Of a stretch of DNA of 64,000 nucleotides, positions 6,680 through 53,736 are shown one piece after another; position 1 is the first letter of the stretch, and each line of letters opens with the position of its first letter. Position numbers and translations under genes: made by a program. The notes below the pieces were generated by a model, which did not search any database, was not told where the DNA came from, and was given only the letters and a program-made list of their open reading frames with translations. This stretch comes from Camelus dromedarius (taxonomy: Eukaryota): NCBI RefSeq assembly GCF_036321535.1, contig NC_087436.1:36396001-36460000 (forward strand), given 5' to 3'.

Positions 6680-6847
6680 ATGAGATCCAGTCCTGGCAAC
6701 ATGGAGAGAATAGTCATCTGCCTGATGGTCATCTTCTCAGGGACAGTGGCCCACAAATCAAACTCCCAAGGGCAAGATCGCCTCTTGATTAGATTGCGTC
6801 AACTTATAGATATTGTTGACCAGCTGAAGCATTATGTGAATGACTTG
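6680..6847 (+). CDS. IL21: Interleukin-21 coding exon 1 (signal peptide and helix A)
   Basis: Translates [56 protein letters not shown] (56 codons), recognisably the IL-21 N-terminus. Ends at donor TTG|gtaagg (6848). Confidence 0.98.
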
Positions 6848-6955: not shown

Positions 6956-6991
6956 GACCCTGAATTTCTGCCAGCTCCAGAAGACGTAAAG
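6956..6991 (+). CDS. IL21: Interleukin-21 exon 2
   Basis: Acceptor ttttgttttgctctag|, 36 nt encoding DPEFLPAPEDVK, donor AAG|gtaaga. Intron 1 is 108 nt, phase 0. Confidence 0.98.
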
Positions 6992-7425
6992 GTAAGACCA
7001 GCTGAATTTATTTGTGAAAATATATTTGATGTAAGTTTTTTTAAGTCCAATTAAGAAAGGCATTAACGTGATTATTTAGGAATATACTTAATTTCAATGA
7101 ATTGGAGGGTTTAATAATTGGTAAAATAGTTATTTCTATTTTGCTTAAATATTCATTGATTTACCAGCAAGCCAACCAATAAAACACTACATACCTTATA
7201 AGATATATTTTTATCTTCAAATATCTCTAAGTATTCCCAAGTAGTATTGTTGAGACAGAAAAACAAAACTAGAAAATAAATCTACACTATGATCATTTTC
7301 TGAACAATAACCAAACTAATCACATTTTAAGAGTCCTTGTGCATGAAAGTTCTTGAGCCTCTTTGTAACCCTATTTAAGAAATATAGACACATACCATAA
7401 GAAGCAGGATTCCCCTTTAATAACT

Positions 7426-7525
7426 AGAAAGGAAGAAAGAAAGGGAGAAGGAAGGAAGGAAGGAAAGAAAGAAAGAAAAGAAAGGAAGGAAGGAAGAAAG
7501 GAAGGAAGGAAGAAAGAAAAAAAGA
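7426..7525 (+). repeat. Polypurine (GAAG/GAAA)n simple repeat in IL21 intron 2
   Basis: About 100 nt of pure purine tract. Confidence 0.95.
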
Positions 7526-8667
7526 TTACAGGAACAGCATGGAAGAATGGCAGTATGGAAATCAAGGCCGTCCTTTAGAATATAATTCCCATATACCTTG
7601 GTCTCAACGAGTCTTGTCTTTGGCCTTCCGTGAGATCTTTTGAAAGGATCATTTTCAACAACTCATTCAGTTCTTTAAGGCATTTAAATCCGTTAGTTCC
7701 CAGGAAGAAGAGGCCTAGCATACAGTTCAAGAGTGCTGTGTGCTGATCTTTTCCTTGGTAACTTCGATCTAGTCTTCAGGTTTGGTACCCCGAGGATATA
7801 AACGCAACTGGGGGAAATGTTTTCATTGCCACAGACCTTTAACTGCATAAATTAGAATAACTATATAAGTGCTACCAGTAATTAGGACACTACAAAGGGG
7901 AGACTTATGAAGATACATTGCAAAGAAAACAATTATCGTAAATGACTATATGTAAAAGTTTAGAAAGTGAATGAGTCACAACTATTGCTTTTCTCTAAAA
8001 TTCACTCTCTAGCTCTGAACCTAACCACTCTCATTTACTCGGTCCTTTTCTAATAAGCAGCATCTAAAATGAAAGTAGCACATTCAGCTCATTGGAAAGA
8101 CTTTTCCAATAAGTAAAACAATTTCTTACTGTTCTAATAATCAAAACATATATATTTTCAGCATCTCATGCCCTTTGTTTAACTGCTGTGGTTAGAGTTC
8201 TTTCGGGAGGTTTTTAGCTGCTGTCAAGAACTTCCAAAATAAGAAACATATCCCATTTCCTAACCTGAGTTGATTCAGTGGGTACTTCTTTTACATGCTT
8301 TGTTAAAGAGAGATGTTTTTTACCTGACATCATAATGACAAGATTTTGTCTCAGTGATACTTTACCTATCTGATAATCTGATCATGCATGCTGGCTTTGA
8401 TAAAGTGAGTAATGGTATAACTAAGATCTTTAAGCTAGGCTAGCAGGAAACTCAGGAAAAAGAAAATAGTTCAAGGCCACAGTAGAGTTTTATCAAGTTT
8501 TTCAGGGCTAGCATCACAGCAGTCTATCAGAGATTTTTAAAAGATTAAAAAATTTAACGAAAATAAATTCATTTAACTGTTGCATATAAATATTGATATA
8601 TGGTGATCATGTAAGATTGCCAATTGGCCTCACCAGGCATCTTCCTTCCTCTTTCTAATCATATAAC

Positions 8668-8885
8668 CAGTGGTCCTCATCAGGTGGTGATTTTGTCCCA
8701 TGAGAACATATGGCACTGTCTGGAAAAATTTCTGGTTGCCACAATCGTGTGGGGGTGGTTTCTATTAGTGTCTAGTAGGCAAAGGCCAGGGATGCTACTA
8801 AACATTCTAGAATGCACAGGACAGCCCTGACAACAAAGGATTATCCAGCTCAAAATGTCAATAGTGCCACTGTGGAGACATCCTG
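8668..8885 (+). mobile_element. MER20 hAT-Charlie MITE
   Basis: cagtggtcctca...gattttgtccc...ggccagggatgctactaaacattcta...aaatgtcaatagtgcc...cctg, about 220 nt. Confidence 0.85.
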
Positions 8886-10538
8886 ATGAAAACCTAGTTT
8901 GTATGTGGGACAAAGGTAATTTTATCCAGTTAGCAAGACTTCCTAGTATGAATGGCCAGGCTTTCTTAGCCAGGAAAAAAAAAAAGTAAGTAGGTCAAAA
9001 ATAAGTTGTAAGGAGGCAAATATTTTCAAATATTCAATTGCAAATCAACAAAGCCAAGTGCACCTCTCTGCAAAAGCAGTGCTTGACTGCTCTCTGGTTA
9101 AAAAGGAGAGTGGTTTGTTAAGCTTGCTTTTGATTTTCTTACTGTGCCCTCTATTTTGCAAAACTAATGTAGGACAGCTAACTCCTCACGTTCCAGGTGT
9201 GGATGGATGAGGGAAACAAAGCCTTGTCCTCTGAGTCTGCAAGGCACAGCAAAGGAAAGCAATGGTTCTGCTCCCAGGTGGTGGTGCTGCACAGGAACTT
9301 GGGGTCATCCTGAGTGACAGGGCACCAGCAGCTGCCTGAATCGAGGTTAATCTCTCCACTCCCCGTCTCAACGCAGTCTTTAGGCAGTTAGCAGAACAGC
9401 TCCTCCACTTCTTTTCTTCTCTGAGGCTGCCTTTGATGTGCACCTGAAGCCAAATCTAGCAGTTGTTTGTCCTGGACCACAGAATGACAGGAACAGCTCT
9501 CCTGCTTGCAGAAAGCACAAAGCAAAAATCTATTGTCTGTGGACAGGTGAACAAGGAAGAGCAGGAGAGGGATGCCTATCAGTATGGGCATCTGTGTCCA
9601 GATACCAGAGGCTTTTGAAAAGGCTTTCTCAGGTGCAAAATCTTGGTTCACTTGTCTTGGCCACTCTTGGCAATACTGTCTCAAGGGAGTTCATTTGGTA
9701 GGCCCCTATACTTCTTTGGAACCTAATTTTCTTTCAACATACATGTGTAAATGTTAACTCAGCAAAATGGGCCTCTGTGAGAAATGCTGGTTTCTCAGAT
9801 CATCACGGATGAAGCAGTTAGTGTTTTCAGTTTCAGCTGGAAAATATACCTCTTTAAATATGAATATTATTTTTTTCCAGTAAGTTAAGCCGGTTGTGGT
9901 CAAAAAGAAGAGAAAAGAAAAAACTTCAACAAACATGAACATGTGGTTTTCAAGGAAAAAAAAAAGTGCTATAATTAACATTTATAAATAGTTTCTATTA
10001 AATAAGCATTTTGGCAAACATATGTAAAGGACACTATCTCGCCCTTATGAGAGGCAAGCTGCTCTGATATAAGGAAACCAGATAAGCTGGTTCTCGGCTT
10101 GTGGCTACGTATGCAAAGCAAATCTGACGGGGTTGTGCCTTAAAGATGCGTGTTATTAATCGACATTCATATTGGGTAACCATATAGGTTGGAAAATGCA
10201 AAGCAGGCCAGATGCTATTTTCAGCTGATTGTCCATGAGAAGACTCAGGTAATATTCTTATATATGGGATGGCACTGGTAGGAACTGAGGGAAACTGAGG
10301 CTTCTGGTTATACAGCAGTGGATTCCAAACATATTAGTGAAATGAAGACATAGCAACTTTGCAAGGGGAAATTGCATCATATACACACAGTTGCTGAAAG
10401 AAGAAAGTAACTTGGATACAAATTCTTAGATCAGCATTAAAATGTTTTCATTAAGTTAGTATAAATTTTGTTTTTCCAATATATTCCATATCATTTGCAG
10501 TTCAATTTCTAAGACTTGTACTTATTCACTTAGTCACT

Positions 10539-10753
10539 AGAAATATCTCTCATTTAGATGCAAATCTAAAGAAAATGAGCATGGCTTTAGAAAAGATGGG
10601 TATTTTGGTGACTGAGACAGAAGAACTGGCAGAGAATATACTCAAGTGGCGAGAACAAGAGAAGGAAGTTTCCTCTTTTATCCCCAAAATATTAGCTGAA
10701 GAAGATTTTCTCCATAAACATGATGTTATAATTCCAAAAAAGAAAAAAAAAAA
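10539..10753 (+). pseudogene. HAUS2: 5'-truncated processed HAUS2 (augmin subunit 2/CEP27) retrocopy fragment in IL21 intron 2
   Basis: Uninterrupted frame [66 protein letters not shown] aligns colinearly to the recalled human HAUS2 C-terminal region ([66 protein letters not shown]). An A-tract at 10736-10753 follows directly. Confidence 0.88.
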
Positions 10754-11650
10754 CAACTCCAAAACAACCTAGTAATTCAACTAACCAAGAGTCAAATTTT
10801 GGATTCTTGTTCTGTCCACCTCTCCATGCTCTGAGACGTTACTCCTACTTTCTGAGGGGCAGTCTTCCCTCTCATTAGTGGGGCAAGTCTCGAATTTTGT
10901 TCCTCAACTGCTTGATTCAGGCAGAATCCCACCCTAACTGACCAGAGAGTATGGATAGGATTTTAGAAAAGTCAAGTATGGGATACAGCAGGTGTACTGA
11001 ATCTTACATTTGGAATATGCCATCTGAGGTAGGTAACCACTTCCTATCCCCAAAGGAGGTGCTTTAACTCACTTATCTGCTGACTTCACAGATATTTGTT
11101 GAGCACTCATGAGCAACAAGACACTATGCCAGGTGTTGTACAGGATGAGGACATGCATGCTCAAGCCACGTATGTCACTGTTAGATACTCTTATGTCCAA
11201 TGCAGAGAGAAACAAAAAACAAATGAAAAAAAATTTTAATCAGACTACAGCTGCCAACAATCATAATGTAACTCTTACAGCCTCATAGTTCATAAAGTGT
11301 GTTCTAAAACCAAACTAACTCTCCCTTATGAAACACCAAAGTCCTTCCCAACACCCAGACCTCACAATGACATTAGGAATAAACAACTGTGGCAAAGCGA
11401 GGCTCCCTCCTCTTGTCTGTGAGACAGGGAGATGTCCTCTCTTCCCTAATACAGGGAAATTTTACATGGCAGGGAGCTCATTCTCTTCAGCCCCCAAAGT
11501 AAGAAGGAACATGAAATCATTCCTCATTTGTCTGCTGAAATGAATGGGATCCAAGACATTGTAGCAGGAGTAGAAAAGGAGGATTGGGAAGGTCATTTTC
11601 ACTTTTTGAATAACTTTCATTAACACGTACACGAATTATTTCTCTTTCAG

Positions 11651-11806
11651 AGACACTGTGAGTGGTCAGCTTTTTCGTGTTTCCAGAAGATCCAACTAAA
11701 GTCAGCAAATGCGGGAGATAAGGAAAAGATAATCAATGTATTAACTAAGCAGCTGAAGAGGAAACTACCTGCCACAAATGCAAGGAGAACACAGAAACAT
11801 GGACTA
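11651..11806 (+). CDS. IL21: Interleukin-21 exon 3
   Basis: Acceptor tttctctttcag|, 156 nt encoding RHCEWSAFSCFQKIQLKSANAGDKEKIINVLTKQLKRKLPATNARRTQKHGL (C71, C78), donor CTA|gtaaga. Confidence 0.98.
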
Positions 11807-13637: not shown

Positions 13638-13715
13638 ACATGCCCTTCATGTGATTCTTATGAGAAAAAACCACCCAAAGAATTCCTAGAAAGACTGAAA
13701 TCACTCATCCAAAAG
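13638..13715 (+). CDS. IL21: Interleukin-21 exon 4
   Basis: Acceptor ttgatttctag|, 78 nt encoding [26 protein letters not shown] (C122, C125), donor AAG|gtatat. Confidence 0.98.
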
Positions 13716-13807: not shown

Positions 13808-13831
13808 ATGATCCATCAGCATCTCTCCTAG
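13808..13831 (+). CDS. IL21: Interleukin-21 exon 5 coding part
   Basis: Acceptor tatttccacag|, encodes MIHQHLS then TAG (13829-13831). Intron 4 is 92 nt. Confidence 0.97.
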   Translation: MIHQHLS

Positions 13832-16450
13832 AACACGTGGAATACGAAGGTTGCAGAAGATCTCACTTGAAGCTGGACACTATATTACAGACTCTAACAC
13901 AGTAGTGAAACTCACTTCTTGGTATTCCAAATGGAGGAGTACGACATATTAGTGATGGGGGAAAACTCAGATAAGTGTTCAAAGTCAGGATTATTTACCC
14001 CAAATCACTATGCATGACTTCAGTTTGATCCACACACTCTGTGTTTGGTCAACTTGAAAAGACTTTGTTCTCAATTAGAGTCTGATTTCCTGTGTTATAG
14101 GTTTTGATGACTTCTAAAGTTTTAACTTTATCTTACTGCCCAACTATGACATCTCTTAGAGAAGCTTAAAATTTTTAGCCAAAAATACAATTTGGGGATT
14201 TATTGATCTTATATTCACCTTGATCTTGATTACCACAAGAATGAGGTTTCTGATGATCATAACTTAAAAGTTCTACACCTTCACTCAAGAGGAAAAACAC
14301 AGAAGTATAGGGTGAAAATCAAAGTTGAACATTTATTCTTTTAAGAAAATGAAAACTGAGTATTTAAAATCTATATATGAAGACGTTTTTCCCTCAGAAT
14401 GTCTAACATATGATTTATTTATGTACCAGGAAGATAGCTTTACGAGATGGCTCAAAAAACCTCTGACTTCTTTATTGGGATTTATCAAAATATTTAAATA
14501 CTATAGACATGAATGTATTTATGGAATAGACTCTTTCAGTCTCTTTTTCTCTAAGTGGGTGTAATAGTACCTTCCCCAACTTAAGTCCCTTTATAACCTA
14601 ACATTCTAAGCTTATGGAAATGGCAATTAAAATTTATAGAGGGACATATATTAGGTGGTCTTCTGGAACCAAACAGAATTTTTGTAAGTCTTGTGGCTCT
14701 CTTCCCCAATTGTTATAATGATTGTATGGGAGTGAGCTAATCATGCCAAACGTCTATTTCCTTCCTTCTTTCTTCCTGTCTTGTCTTTCATCTTTTTAAA
14801 TTGGCAGACACTTTGTGTTGCATGTGTTCTATATAAGGTAAATCACCTCTACAAAACCAAAATCAAGAGACAAATCAAGAGGCCAGGACTCCTGTCCTAG
14901 TAGAAAACAGACCTTTGCATAAGCATCCCCATCTTTCAACCATGGGTAGTAGAAACAAGCAGCCTGCTCTAACTGCCATTTCATATCAACTCCAGCAGTT
15001 TATTTAAATATACAGTTAAAAACGCTAGAAAAATAAAATTTTCACTAGACTGTTATAAGCTATTTGAGAATCTCTAATAGTAAAATGGCTGAGTGTACAA
15101 GAGGATGTTGAACGGGAAATACTTTATGCTTTGAGAAGAAAAATGATCTACTTAAAAATATTTTTTAAACAAGTACAGATTAATTTATGGTTCTAAAACA
15201 TATGTTAGAAATCAATGATTTTATGAAATCTCAATGAAACGTTTTATCCTCAGAAATAAGGTATGCTGTGCTAGAATTTTAAAATGTTATTACAAAGAAG
15301 TCATGTAAATACATGCACCATGATGACAACATGCATCTACAGCCTGCCCCAGAGTCAGGCCAGGTTGTTGGGATTAATATGGAAAGTAAGCACGAGGTTG
15401 ACTTGGGAAAGATGGAGTCCTTATTTCTTGTTTCTGGCTTTACCATTGTTGACTTCTTTCACACTGTGATTTTATATTTAAAATAACATATTTATTTTGG
15501 TGTGTTTACTGTTAAAAATCTCTGTTCTAATCCTTTCAACCAGAGTTCTACTTTAAAAATAAAATTAATTTAATGGAGTGCTGGCTAAAAGCCTTCACTA
15601 AACTGAGTTTAAAGACTCGGGTAAAGACCCTAGCAACATCCCAAGGAAAGCAATGCATCAGAATAAACAAGATGAAGAAGTGAGACTTGAACTGCTCCAT
15701 CTTCACTGCTCTGTGTTCAAGACCTAGTCAGCCCCCCAAAAGGATCTTAGGCTAACCTGTAAGCATTGCTGTTCACCTATGGATGGTGGTGCAGGAGACT
15801 GGAAATCTCGCTGGCTGTGAAATTGTGGTCATTTCCTTAAATTTTTTGGTTTCCATTTCTTTATCTGTAGAGTGAGGGTGTTGGACTTAATCTCTAAGGA
15901 ATATTCTGCCTTTTTTTGAGCTTTATGTGTCTATGAGTATCTGAAGTTCTGGATATTCTTATAGGAACATCTGACCATACTCCCGAGTAAAACTTTCTAC
16001 TGAACCTGGTGTTCATTTGCTCAACATCATTTCAATAGCAGGAAGAAGGGACATGTTTCCCCCCAAAAAGGAAGGAAGGAAAAAAGAAAGAAGGAAGGAA
16101 GGAAAGAAGGAAGGAAAAAAGATTGCTGTAGGTCATGGGAGTTCAGGAAAAATAATCATGATTTTTACCATTTTAGCTCAAAGTGTCTTCTTCGGACACG
16201 TATAAAATTGTAGCATTATTATTCTATATTATTGCTCTGTTGTATTTACATTTGCATTTGAGAATTTAGTTTTAATGTAAACTATGTACTTTATAACTTA
16301 ATGATTATTTATTATATATTTGGTTTTAAATGTTTATGTTCATGGCTTCATATTTAAGACCTGATCATATTAAATACTACCCAGTCAGTACTACTGTCTT
16401 TTGTGATTCCCTGGAAACCCATAATTCAATAGTCTTAGCAGAAAATAAAA
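13832..16450 (+). other. IL21: Probable long IL21 3' UTR with AU-rich elements
   Basis: No obvious interspersed repeats. ATTTATTTA at 14413-14421 and a very AU-rich block at about 16200-16380. Candidate poly(A) signals are AATAAA 15032, AATAAA 15558, ATTAAA 16369 and AATAAA 16444. The true end cannot be determined from sequence. Confidence 0.55.
16069..16120 (+). repeat. (GAAG)n purine-rich simple repeat
   Basis: Direct reading. Confidence 0.9.
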
Positions 16451-18092: not shown

Positions 18093-19720
18093 GTTCTTCC
18101 ATTTCTATCAGTTTTTAATTTTTCTTTTTTTTAGAATTATTTTTTATTGAGGTAACTGGTTTATAACATTATATAAGTAAAATGTGTACAATATTATATT
18201 TCTACTTCTGTATACACTACAGCGTGCTCACCACCAAAATTTAGTTACCACCTGTCGCCATACGATTGACCCCCTTTACCCATTTCACCTTCCCTTTCCT
18301 GCCCCTTCCCCTCCAGTAACCACTATTCTGTTCTCTATATTGTGTTTTGTTTGATATGCTCACATATTTTGATTTTGGTTTGCTTTTCTGTTTTTTATAT
18401 TCCACATCTGAGTGAAATCATATTGTATTTGCCTTTCTCTGACTGACTTATTTCACTCAGCATAAATACCCCTAAGGCCCATCTTCACTGTTGCAAAAAA
18501 AATAAATAAGTAAGTAAAGATTCCATCCTTTCATCCTTTTTATGGCTGAGTAGTATTCCACAGATATATACACCACATCTTCTTTTTTTTTTAACGTTTT
18601 TTATTGATTTATAATCATTTTACAATGTTGTGTCAAATTCCAGTGTTCAGCACAATTTTTCAGTTATTCATGGACATAAATACACTCATTGTCACATTTT
18701 TTTCTCTGTGAGTTATCATAACATTTTGTGTATATTTCCCTGTGCTATACAGTGTAGTCTATTCTACAATTTTGAAATCCCAGTCTATCCCTTCCCACCC
18801 TCCACCCCCCTGGTAACCACAAGTCTGTATTCTCTGTCTGTGAGTCTATTTCTGTCCTTTATTTACGCTTTGTTTTTGTTTGTTTGTTTGTTTTTGTTTT
18901 TGTTTTTTAGATTCCACATATGAGCGATCTCATATGGTATTTTTCTTTCTCTTTCTGGCTTACTTCACTTAGAATGACATTCTCCAGGAGCATCCATGTT
19001 GCTGCAAATGGCATTATGTTGTCGGTTTTTATGGCTGAGTAGTATTCCATTGTATAAATATACCACCTCTTCTTTATCCAGTCACCTGTTGATGGACATT
19101 TAGGCTGTTTCCATGTTTTGGCTATTGTAAATAGTGCTGCTATGAACATTGGGGTGCAGGTGTCATCCTGAAGTAGATTTCCTTCTGGATACAAGCCCAG
19201 GAGTGGGATTCCTGGGTCACATGGTAAGTCTATTCCTAGTCTTTTGAGGAATCTCCACACTGTTTTCCATAGTGGCTGCACCAAACTGCATTCCCACCAG
19301 CAGTGTAGGAGGGTTCCCCTTTCTCCACAGCCTCTCCAGCATTTGTCACTTGTGGATTTTTGAATGACGGCCATTCTGACTGGTGTGAGGTGATACCTCA
19401 TTGTAGTTTTGATTTGCATTTCTCTGATAATTAGTGATATTGAGCATTTTTTCATGTGCTTTTTGATCATTTGTATGTCTTCCTTGGAGAATTGCTTGTT
19501 TAGGTCTTCTGCCCATTTTTGGATTGGGTTGTTTATTTTTTTCTTATTGAGTCGTATGAGCTGCTTATATATTCTGGAGATCAAGCCTTTGTCGGTTTCA
19601 CTTGCAAAAATTTTCTCCCATTCTGTAGGTTTTCTCACCACATCTTCTTAATCCATGCATCTGTTGATAGGCACTTGGGTTGCTTCTGTATTTCGGCTAT
19701 TGTAAACAATGCCATGATGG
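18093..19720 (-). mobile_element. Older 5'-truncated LINE-1 3' end (host of nested L1)
   Basis: Degenerate poly(T) then L1 3'UTR text. Flanked by an imperfect 17-bp TSD, CAGTATTGCCTAATCTT (18076-18092) and CAGTATTCTCTAATCTT (19721-19737). Confidence 0.8.
18585..19635 (-). mobile_element. Young 5'-truncated LINE-1 with intact ORF2 C-terminus
   Basis: Uninterrupted ORF2 C-terminal frame at 18907-19635 including the cysteine-rich [18 protein letters not shown] motif. Perfect 14-bp TSD CACCACATCTTCTT (18571-18584 and 19636-19649). Poly(A) tail on the minus strand. Confidence 0.95.
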
Positions 19721-52093: not shown

Positions 52094-53736
52094 TTTTTTA
52101 TTGAAGCATACTTGATTTAAAACATTGTATTAGTTTCAGGTGTATAACACAGTGATTCAATATTTTATATATTATATTCTATTTAAACTTATTATAAAAT
52201 ATTGTGCTGTAGAGTGTATCCTTGTAGCTTATTGACTTTATACATGCTAGTTTGTACCTCTTAATCCTCTACCCCTATCTTGCCCCTTCCCCCCTTCTTT
52301 CTCCCCACTGGTAACCACTAGTTTGTTCTCTGAAAGTTTTTTTCTGTCTTGTTATATTAATTCATTTGTTTCATTCTTTAGATTCCACATTTAAGTGATA
52401 ACATACAGTATTTGTCTTTCTGTCTGATTTATTTCACTAAGCATAATATGCTCCAGGTCCACCTATGCTGTTTCAAATGGCAAAATTTCATTCTTTTTTA
52501 TGGCTGGTAATACTCCATTGTATATATATACCACATCTTCATCCATTCATCTGTTGATGGACATTCAGGTTGCTTCCATATCTTGGCAACTGTAAATAAT
52601 TCTTGGGGTGCATATATCTTTCCAAATTAGTTTTTTCCTTTTCTTTGGATTTACACCTAAAAGTGACATTGCTGGATCATGTGGTGATTCTATTTTTAGT
52701 TTTTTGAGAAACCACCATACTGTTTTCAAAGTGGCTGCACCAATTTACATTCCACCACCAGTGTACAAGGATTCCCTTTTCTCCACATCTGCATCAACAT
52801 TTGTTATTTGTGTTTTTTTTTATGATAGCCACTCTGACAGATGTGAGGTGATAACTTATTTTGGTTTTGATTTGCATTTCTCTGATGATTAGTGATGTTG
52901 AGCATCTTTTCATGTGCCTATTGGCCATCTGTATATCTTCTTTGGAATAATGTCTATTCAGGTCTTCCGCCCATTAAAAAAAAATTTTTTTTTGATATTG
53001 AGTTGTATGAACTGTCTCAAAGCAAACTACAGATACAATGCCATCCCAATCAAAATACCTATGCAATTTTTCACAGGACTAGACCAAATAATCCTGAAAT
53101 TTACATGGAACAACAGAAGACTTCAAATACCCAAAGTAATCTTGAGAAAAAAGAACAAAGCTGGAAGTATCATGCTCCCTGGCTTCAGACTACACTACGA
53201 AGCTAGAGTAATCAAAACAGTATGTAGGTCAATGGAACAGACTACATTATGAAGCTAGAGTAATCAAAACAGACATGTAGGTCAATGGAAGAGAATAGAG
53301 AGCCCAGAAATAAACCCATGCACTTATGGTCAATGAATGTATGACAGAGGAGACAAGAATATACAATGGAGGAAAGATAGTCTCTTCAATAAACTGTGCT
53401 GGGAAAACTGGACAGCTACATGTAAAAGAACAAACTTAGAACAACAACAACAAAAAAAACCTCAAATAGATTAAATACCTAACTGTAAGACTGAAAACTA
53501 CAAAACTCCTAGAAGAAAACACAGGCAGAATATTCTTTGTCATAAATCACAGCAATTTTTTTGGATCTGTCTCCTAAGGCAAAGAAAAAAAAAAAAGAAC
53601 AAATGGGACCTAATTAAACTTAAAAGCTTTTGCACAGCAAAGGAAACCACTGGAAAAATGAAAAGACAACCTACTGAATGGGAGGAAATATTTTCAAATG
53701 TTATAACTCTTATAGAGTTAAAATCCAAAATACATA
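52094..53736 (-). mobile_element. LINE-1 with 5' inversion (twin priming)
   Basis: 52094-53013 is the L1 3' end on the minus strand. About 53014-53736 is upstream ORF2 sequence on the plus strand ([14 protein letters not shown]...). The two pieces are nearly contiguous in L1 coordinates. Confidence 0.85.

Follow-up and report, generated by a model that had tools for sequence, protein, structure and literature searches.

How did a fragment of HAUS2 coding sequence, followed at once by a run of adenines, come to lie in an intron of the dromedary IL21 gene, what kind of transcript was it copied from, and does it have a role in its host? These questions were addressed in a 64,000-nt stretch of Camelus dromedarius DNA carrying IL21 (hereafter the window), together with the HAUS2 loci found elsewhere in the same genome.

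Results

The insert lies in sense orientation in IL21 intron 2

Exons 1 and 3 match IL-21 structures in the PDB (E 3e-8 and E 1.7e-19, respectively), which identifies the host gene, and a splicing model with canonical AG/GT boundaries joined five exons into a 153-aa ORF (Table 1). Insert and IL21 occupy the same strand, and 897 nt separate the end of the insert's tail from exon 3. Putative consensus sites for STAT (7093 and 9949) and AP-1 (7972) in intron 2, found with simple patterns, all fall outside the insert. The literature search returned no passage locating a regulatory element at the position of the insert in IL21 intron 2; the part of PMC3312336 that was retrieved concerns intron 2 of IL4, not of IL21.

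Elsewhere in the window, a 246-aa stop-free frame on the minus strand (18907-19647, about 5 kb downstream of IL21), to which Pfam assigned no family, is what we take to be the C-terminal part of LINE-1 ORF2. A 52-nt tandem duplication at 53186-53294 (2.1 copies, 91% match) is presumably L1-like.

Table 1 Coordinates of the IL21 exons and of the parts of the HAUS2 insert in the window
Feature	Position	Strand	Basis or remark
IL21 coding exon 1	6680..6847	+	PDB match and splicing model
IL21 exon 2 (36 nt, ends in phase 0)	6956..6991	+	Splicing model
IL21 intron 2, host intron (4,659 nt)	6992..11650	+	Splicing model
HAUS2 retrocopy fragment	10538..10735	+	Parent CDS nt 459-656, both ends cut, no indels
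Last 40 nt of HAUS2 exon 5	10538..10577	+	Parent exon G000:C5 21,036,795-21,036,903, minus strand
First 158 nt of HAUS2 exon 6	10578..10735	+	Directly follows exon 5; 1,626-nt intron absent
CATAAA, His-Lys codons 212-213, candidate variant polyadenylation signal	10713..10718	+	17 nt before the tail; putative role
A6-G-A11 tract read as poly(A) tail	10736..10753	+	Starts inside codon 219
IL21 exon 3	11651..11806	+	PDB match and splicing model
IL21 exon 4	13638..13715	+	Splicing model
IL21 exon 5, coding part up to the stop	13808..13831	+	Splicing model

The insert is a copy of spliced HAUS2 RNA

The parent gene lies on the minus strand of G000:C5 and has six coding exons encoding 235 aa, identical to the protein named Camelus HAUS2. 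Over its whole length the insert aligned to this coding sequence without a gap, with 178 of 198 nt identical (89.9%) and 20 mismatches. It spans codons 154-219 of the 708-nt parent CDS, so that 66 of the 235 codons are kept and sequence is missing on both sides, including the promoter and the first exons. The frame opening at 10539 runs through these 66 codons without a stop and straight into the A-tract. When translated, it matched human HAUS2 (PDB 7sqk_B, chain residues 203-268) with an E value of 3e-27, as the sole match in 177,635 sequences, and it matched the Pfam HAUS2 family at E 8.8e-6 (26 bits, just below the 27-bit cut-off). A protein search with the insert found 97 proteins among 141 candidates, every one of which (97/97) carries PF15003. 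Two pika proteins with a HAUS2 domain that match the insert are named 'synaptosomal-associated protein 23' by their source, a label that is probably an annotation error.

The junction between parent exons 5 and 6 is crossed at 10577/10578, where the intron is missing at the exact exon boundary, and the insert therefore came from spliced RNA. In the dromedary genome (2.3 Gb), all four candidates returned by the search were true matches: the insert itself, two C5 exons and a second copy on C2. Collectively, these results bear out the preliminary description of the locus, which had named HAUS2, reported a stop-free frame of about 66 codons with an 18-nt A-tract and gap-free colinearity, predicted this exon-exon junction and placed the fragment in sense orientation in IL21 intron 2.

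Both junctions of the insert were also looked up in an index of sequencing runs. In 14 of 24 rows, all from one organism, a share of 0.99 of the 72 words across the junctions was present; 12 of these rows may be the source of the assembly and the other two come from two further studies, which makes an assembly artefact less likely. Shares in six RNA rows were 0.04-0.51, and these rows were not counted as evidence. With similarity to its parent, intron loss, an untemplated tail and coding decay, the insert is a retrocopy, or processed pseudogene in the broad sense.

A second, near full-length HAUS2 retrocopy marks the normal poly(A) site

The copy on C2 (about 27,996,620-28,000,880 of G000:C2, minus strand) is near full length, has no introns and is dead, with frameshifts and an in-frame stop. 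It shows two AATAAA hexamers about 1.6 kb past the stop followed by an A12 tail, and thus marks the normal HAUS2 poly(A) site. Its target site duplication (TSD) matches at 11 of 12 positions, a score that random flanks reached in 6 of 200 trials. The 3′UTR of this copy differs from that of the parent by 13.1% substitutions and has been broken up by later high-copy repeats. Its tail and TSD together indicate that L1 acted on HAUS2 mRNA in this lineage.

The two copies share their parent and are both intron-less, dead and, by residue states, probably older than the Camelus-Vicugna split. The C2 copy differs from the insert in its length, its normal AATAAA site, its A12 tail, its 11/12 TSD and its repeat-interrupted 3′UTR.

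The tail of the insert starts inside the coding sequence

The tail begins 16 codons before the stop; the parent CDS runs on for another 52 nt, stop codon included. The preliminary description had missed this 3′ cut; its 5′-truncated processed pseudogene therefore holds for the 5′ truncation but not as a plain copy of the normal mRNA, since the 3′ end is also cut inside the CDS. No other plus-strand 18-mer of the window has 17 or more A, and the tract abuts the last homologous base. At the corresponding position both the parent and the C2 copy are pyrimidine-rich, and the 40 nt of the parent beyond the break contain 45% T, a value reached by 4.6% of 668 CDS 40-mers. The tail was thus neither templated by the parent nor primed at an internal site. 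Each flank of the insert matched only itself in the genome (one match each, in a search that skips common words), which argues that the tail is not part of an adjoining repeat.

A candidate signal, CATAAA, ends 17 nt before the tail and has been lost from the modern parent through K213N. According to a passage of PMC7356254, single-base variants of the polyadenylation signal sit 10-35 nt before the cleavage site, and the spacing seen here falls within that range. At spacing of this 17-nt type, an NNTAAA-class hexamer occurs at no position of the modern parent CDS, and any of 13 listed hexamers at 13.9% of positions; the hexamer and U-rich tests were post hoc, and the list of 13 is loose. Two observations count against polyadenylation within the CDS. 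The template of the insert has no CA dinucleotide at the break. In addition, CATAAA is a weak hexamer: the AATAAA-to-CATAAA mutation at the beta-globin poly(A) site causes loss of function. That mutation is named in the title of a reference listed by PMC7356254.

By eye, HAUS2 sequence seemed to resume after the tail. This candidate was rejected as chance-level: random 120-mers scored as well in 588 of 3000 cases for the parent and in 2233 of 3000 for the C2 copy.

No TSD is found at the insert

In agreement with the preliminary description, which had read no clean TSD, none was found beyond chance. The best match (6/7) was equalled by 134 of 300 random flanks and that of a wider search by 82 of 100, and a repeat finder gave chance-level matches only. 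The routine that recovers 11/12 at the C2 copy finds nothing at the IL21 insert. Two features of classical L1 TPRT are accordingly absent from the insert, namely a TSD of 5-20 nt and attachment of the tail where the transcript normally ends. The L1 mediation proposed earlier is still suggested by the tail and by the C2 copy; its TSD hallmark, looked for at the insert, was not found there, yet is readable at the other HAUS2 retrocopy.

When the whole IL21 gene was compared by BLASTN with the parent region and with the C2 copy, the known fragment was the only match. A 5′ inversion or additional HAUS2 sequence in the left flank was considered and rejected, the four gapped alignments being equalled by 7, 35, 16 and 9 of 200 random segments. 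The closest call was the best of these (proximal 3′UTR, 7/200), which is heavily gapped and AT-rich beside an insert that is gap-free and 90% identical. A search for outgroup or empty-site DNA by metagenome scans confirmed none of 596 pattern hits to IL21 exon 3 and none of 591 hits to the HAUS2 fragment, and a look-alike index gave 0 windows.

The insert shows no protein-level constraint

The open frame is unremarkable, as 56-75% of simulated frames stayed open after 6-12 random substitutions. All six changes that could be polarised to the insert branch are non-synonymous, with at most three further synonymous changes and a synonymous site share of 0.197; with six polarised changes, this test is one of small numbers. 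Several of the changes hit near-invariant residues: among 157 proteins, counting isoforms, Q194 occurs in all 157 and D174 and P157 each occur in 152. The changes are consistent with neutral decay. A functional ORF or an IL21-HAUS2 fusion was rejected on the grounds of a frame open at chance level, non-synonymous changes and the absence of an in-frame splice route.

Residue states point to a probable insertion on the camelid stem

The age of the insert was estimated from a comparison of 17 named proteins and the C2 copy. Camelus and Vicugna HAUS2 share the derived states K195E/G, C200S, K213N, H214R/C and P219S. None of these five changes is found in the insert, which carries K195, F200, K213, H214 and P219; F200 lies one base from TGT, the Cys codon that we infer as ancestral. 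In codons 154-219 of the parent, eight amino-acid changes would have occurred along the Camelus line since the insert branched off (five on the stem, three in Camelus only), and by this count camelid HAUS2 evolved fast over these 66 codons. Both retrocopies appear to predate the Camelini-Lamini split, which a passage of PMC6726744, citing Wu 2014, places at ~16.3 Mya. The parent's changes at 200 and 213 are present in the C2 copy and absent from the insert, so the insert is probably the older of the two.

An upper bound comes from states that the insert shares with camelids. M168 is found in camelids while the other five of five artiodactyls shown have T; the same residue occurs in caniform carnivores and can arise independently by CpG decay. 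I218 is again a camelid state, with M in pig and V in hippo, whale and ruminants; the C2 copy has V218, unlike both camelids and insert. F210 is shared with pig, hippo, whale and camelids. The bound at the camelid stem, given by residues 168 and 218, is of moderate strength. The insert branch has accumulated 6-9 changes in 198 nt (3.0-4.5%; 95% range 1.1-8.6%), a number too low for an age of 60 My under assumed rates of 1.5-2.2e-9, the date being likewise assumed (P at most 0.017). They are also fewer than the 14.3 changes expected from the divergence of the C2 3′UTR if the insert is older than C2 (P 0.012-0.098), which counts somewhat against that order. Taken together, residue states and change counts make an insertion on the camelid stem very likely, probably more than 16 Mya.

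An insertion of this age should be fixed in all living camelids. The earlier suggestion that it is lineage-specific thus probably holds at the level of camelids as a whole, from HAUS2 residue states, and its proposed use as a presence/absence marker is unlikely to succeed within them because the copy appears older than the Camelini-Lamini split. Purine-rich (AGAA/AAGG)n microsatellites lie at 7426-7525, inside IL21 intron 2, and at 16065-16121; as polymorphic markers these are likelier candidates than the retrocopy.

Whales (220 aa) and, independently, horse and rhinoceros (212 aa) have a shortened C-terminal tail of HAUS2, and the last 15-23 residues of the protein therefore look dispensable. 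The whale protein stops one residue beyond the last position of the insert.

Discussion

The position of the tail calls for an explanation, and we consider it on balance probable that the insert is a retrocopy, made by the L1 machinery, of a HAUS2 mRNA polyadenylated within its coding sequence ('nonstop' mRNA). A spliced HAUS2 transcript would have been cleaved and polyadenylated in the last coding exon at a weak site, where CATAAA is followed by a 17-nt spacing and a U-rich stretch, and the resulting message would have had no stop codon. LINE-1 reverse transcriptase would then have primed on the tail of this message in IL21 intron 2, in the germ line of a stem camelid, and synthesis would have ended after 198 nt. 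The 5′ junction may have been resolved with a target deletion at insertion, or trimmed by a small later deletion, either of which would leave no readable TSD, and the fragment would then have decayed neutrally, without activity. Cryptic polyadenylation inside coding sequences is described as a known process in PMC5504347, a passage of which also states that stop-less mRNAs are quickly degraded; such mRNAs should therefore be rare templates, which counts against this origin.

A different source would be the normal HAUS2 mRNA with its tail about 1.6 kb past the stop: the reverse transcriptase would have jumped from the tail (possibly that of another RNA) to codon 219, or a later deletion would have removed everything from codon 219 to a point within the tail. 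Normal transcripts greatly outnumber stop-less ones and, as the C2 copy proves, are substrates of retrotransposition; the lack of a TSD means that the insertion was either irregular or edited afterwards, and a hexamer from the loose list stands at such a spacing by chance at 13.9% of CDS positions. Set against this, no trace of the 3′UTR is left before or after the tail (588/3000 and 2233/3000 random 120-mers), the deletion must end exactly in the tail and would not in itself erase the left TSD, and both CATAAA and the U-rich downstream tract become coincidences. On these grounds a normal-mRNA template seems unlikely, if a serious candidate. It is improbable that L1 endonuclease had no part and that a piece of HAUS2 cDNA patched a DNA break beside an A-rich tract of the host, so that the 'tail' is host DNA. 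Lack of a TSD and truncation at both ends fit a non-classical insertion of this kind, as does the A/C-rich composition of the 30 nt to the right of the tract, in an intron with other, shorter A runs. The tract is nevertheless the only one on the plus strand of the window with at least 17 of 18 A and starts exactly where homology ends; chance adjacency of the two is very unlikely.

Whatever its template, the insert could have been co-opted in IL21 regulation, as a sense intronic poly(A) site or cryptic exon damping output or as part of an intronic enhancer. Its sense orientation and intact CATAAA would suit such a role, as would the shortfall of changes relative to the C2 3′UTR clock (6-9 vs 14.3). 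By crude patterns, however, the range 10440-10760 holds nine YAG acceptors, none of which continues the phase of IL21 exon 2 and each of which runs into a stop within 3-26 codons, and 10501-10900 contains no donor-like site. The U-rich downstream element stayed behind in the parent, the changes in the insert are mostly non-synonymous, and the putative STAT and AP-1 consensus sites of intron 2 lie elsewhere. We regard co-option as very improbable and would be greatly surprised if the imported signal now acted as an intronic brake on camelid IL21; the insert most plausibly lacks function.

On the origin from a CDS-polyadenylated mRNA, a stronger version would make the insert a direct genomic fossil of a stop-less message captured by L1 in the germ line, with K213N later removing CATAAA from the parent. 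This is a tentative proposal, possible rather than likely. If it is true, substrates of nonstop decay can be retrotransposed, the camelid record preserves both a faulty transcript and its repair (K213N), and a scan of retrocopies for CDS-internal tails would map ancient cryptic poly(A) sites genome-wide. By itself the insert matters little: fragments of this kind number in the thousands in mammalian genomes, and an insertion that is fixed across the family settles no disputed branch. It is a record of ancestral HAUS2 residues predating five camelid changes and probably also of a transcript that ended inside a coding exon. In practice, its 18-nt sense A-tract may mis-prime oligo-dT libraries, and T-cell data from camelids could then seem to show an intronic poly(A) isoform.

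No report linking HAUS2 retrocopies, camelids and IL21 was found, and supplementary retrocopy catalogues (e.g. RetrogeneDB, PMC4069623) could list the locus; nor did a search of titles, which gives weak evidence of absence, return one on retrocopies tailed inside the CDS.

The insert belongs to a known class, the L1-type processed pseudogene, and has a mildly unusual 3′ end. In the passages retrieved from Kazazian 2014 (PMC4151081), which define L1-mediated processed pseudogenes and report 5′ truncation in 74% of somatic cases, these elements resemble the insert in having a parent on another contig, no intron, a 3′ A tail and a truncated 5′ end. The insert differs from them in its missing TSD, in a tail inside the CDS and in its length of only 198 nt. 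The nearest precedent is the TMF1 semi-processed pseudogene in intron 1 of CYBB; according to the same source, its template was a transcript that had terminated at a variant poly(A) signal, and it too is a 3′-truncated retrocopy in an intron of an immune gene. The TMF1 copy ended in an intron (at AGUAAA), is antisense, was exonised and caused disease (PMC4151081), whereas the insert ends in a coding exon, lies in sense orientation, is old and shows no route to exonisation. Finally, prematurely (CDS-)polyadenylated nonstop mRNAs are handled by ribosome quality control (PMC5504347), and the template proposed here would be like them in that its coding frame leads directly into poly(A), read as lysines. 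Unlike those mRNAs, the insert would be a fossil in DNA.
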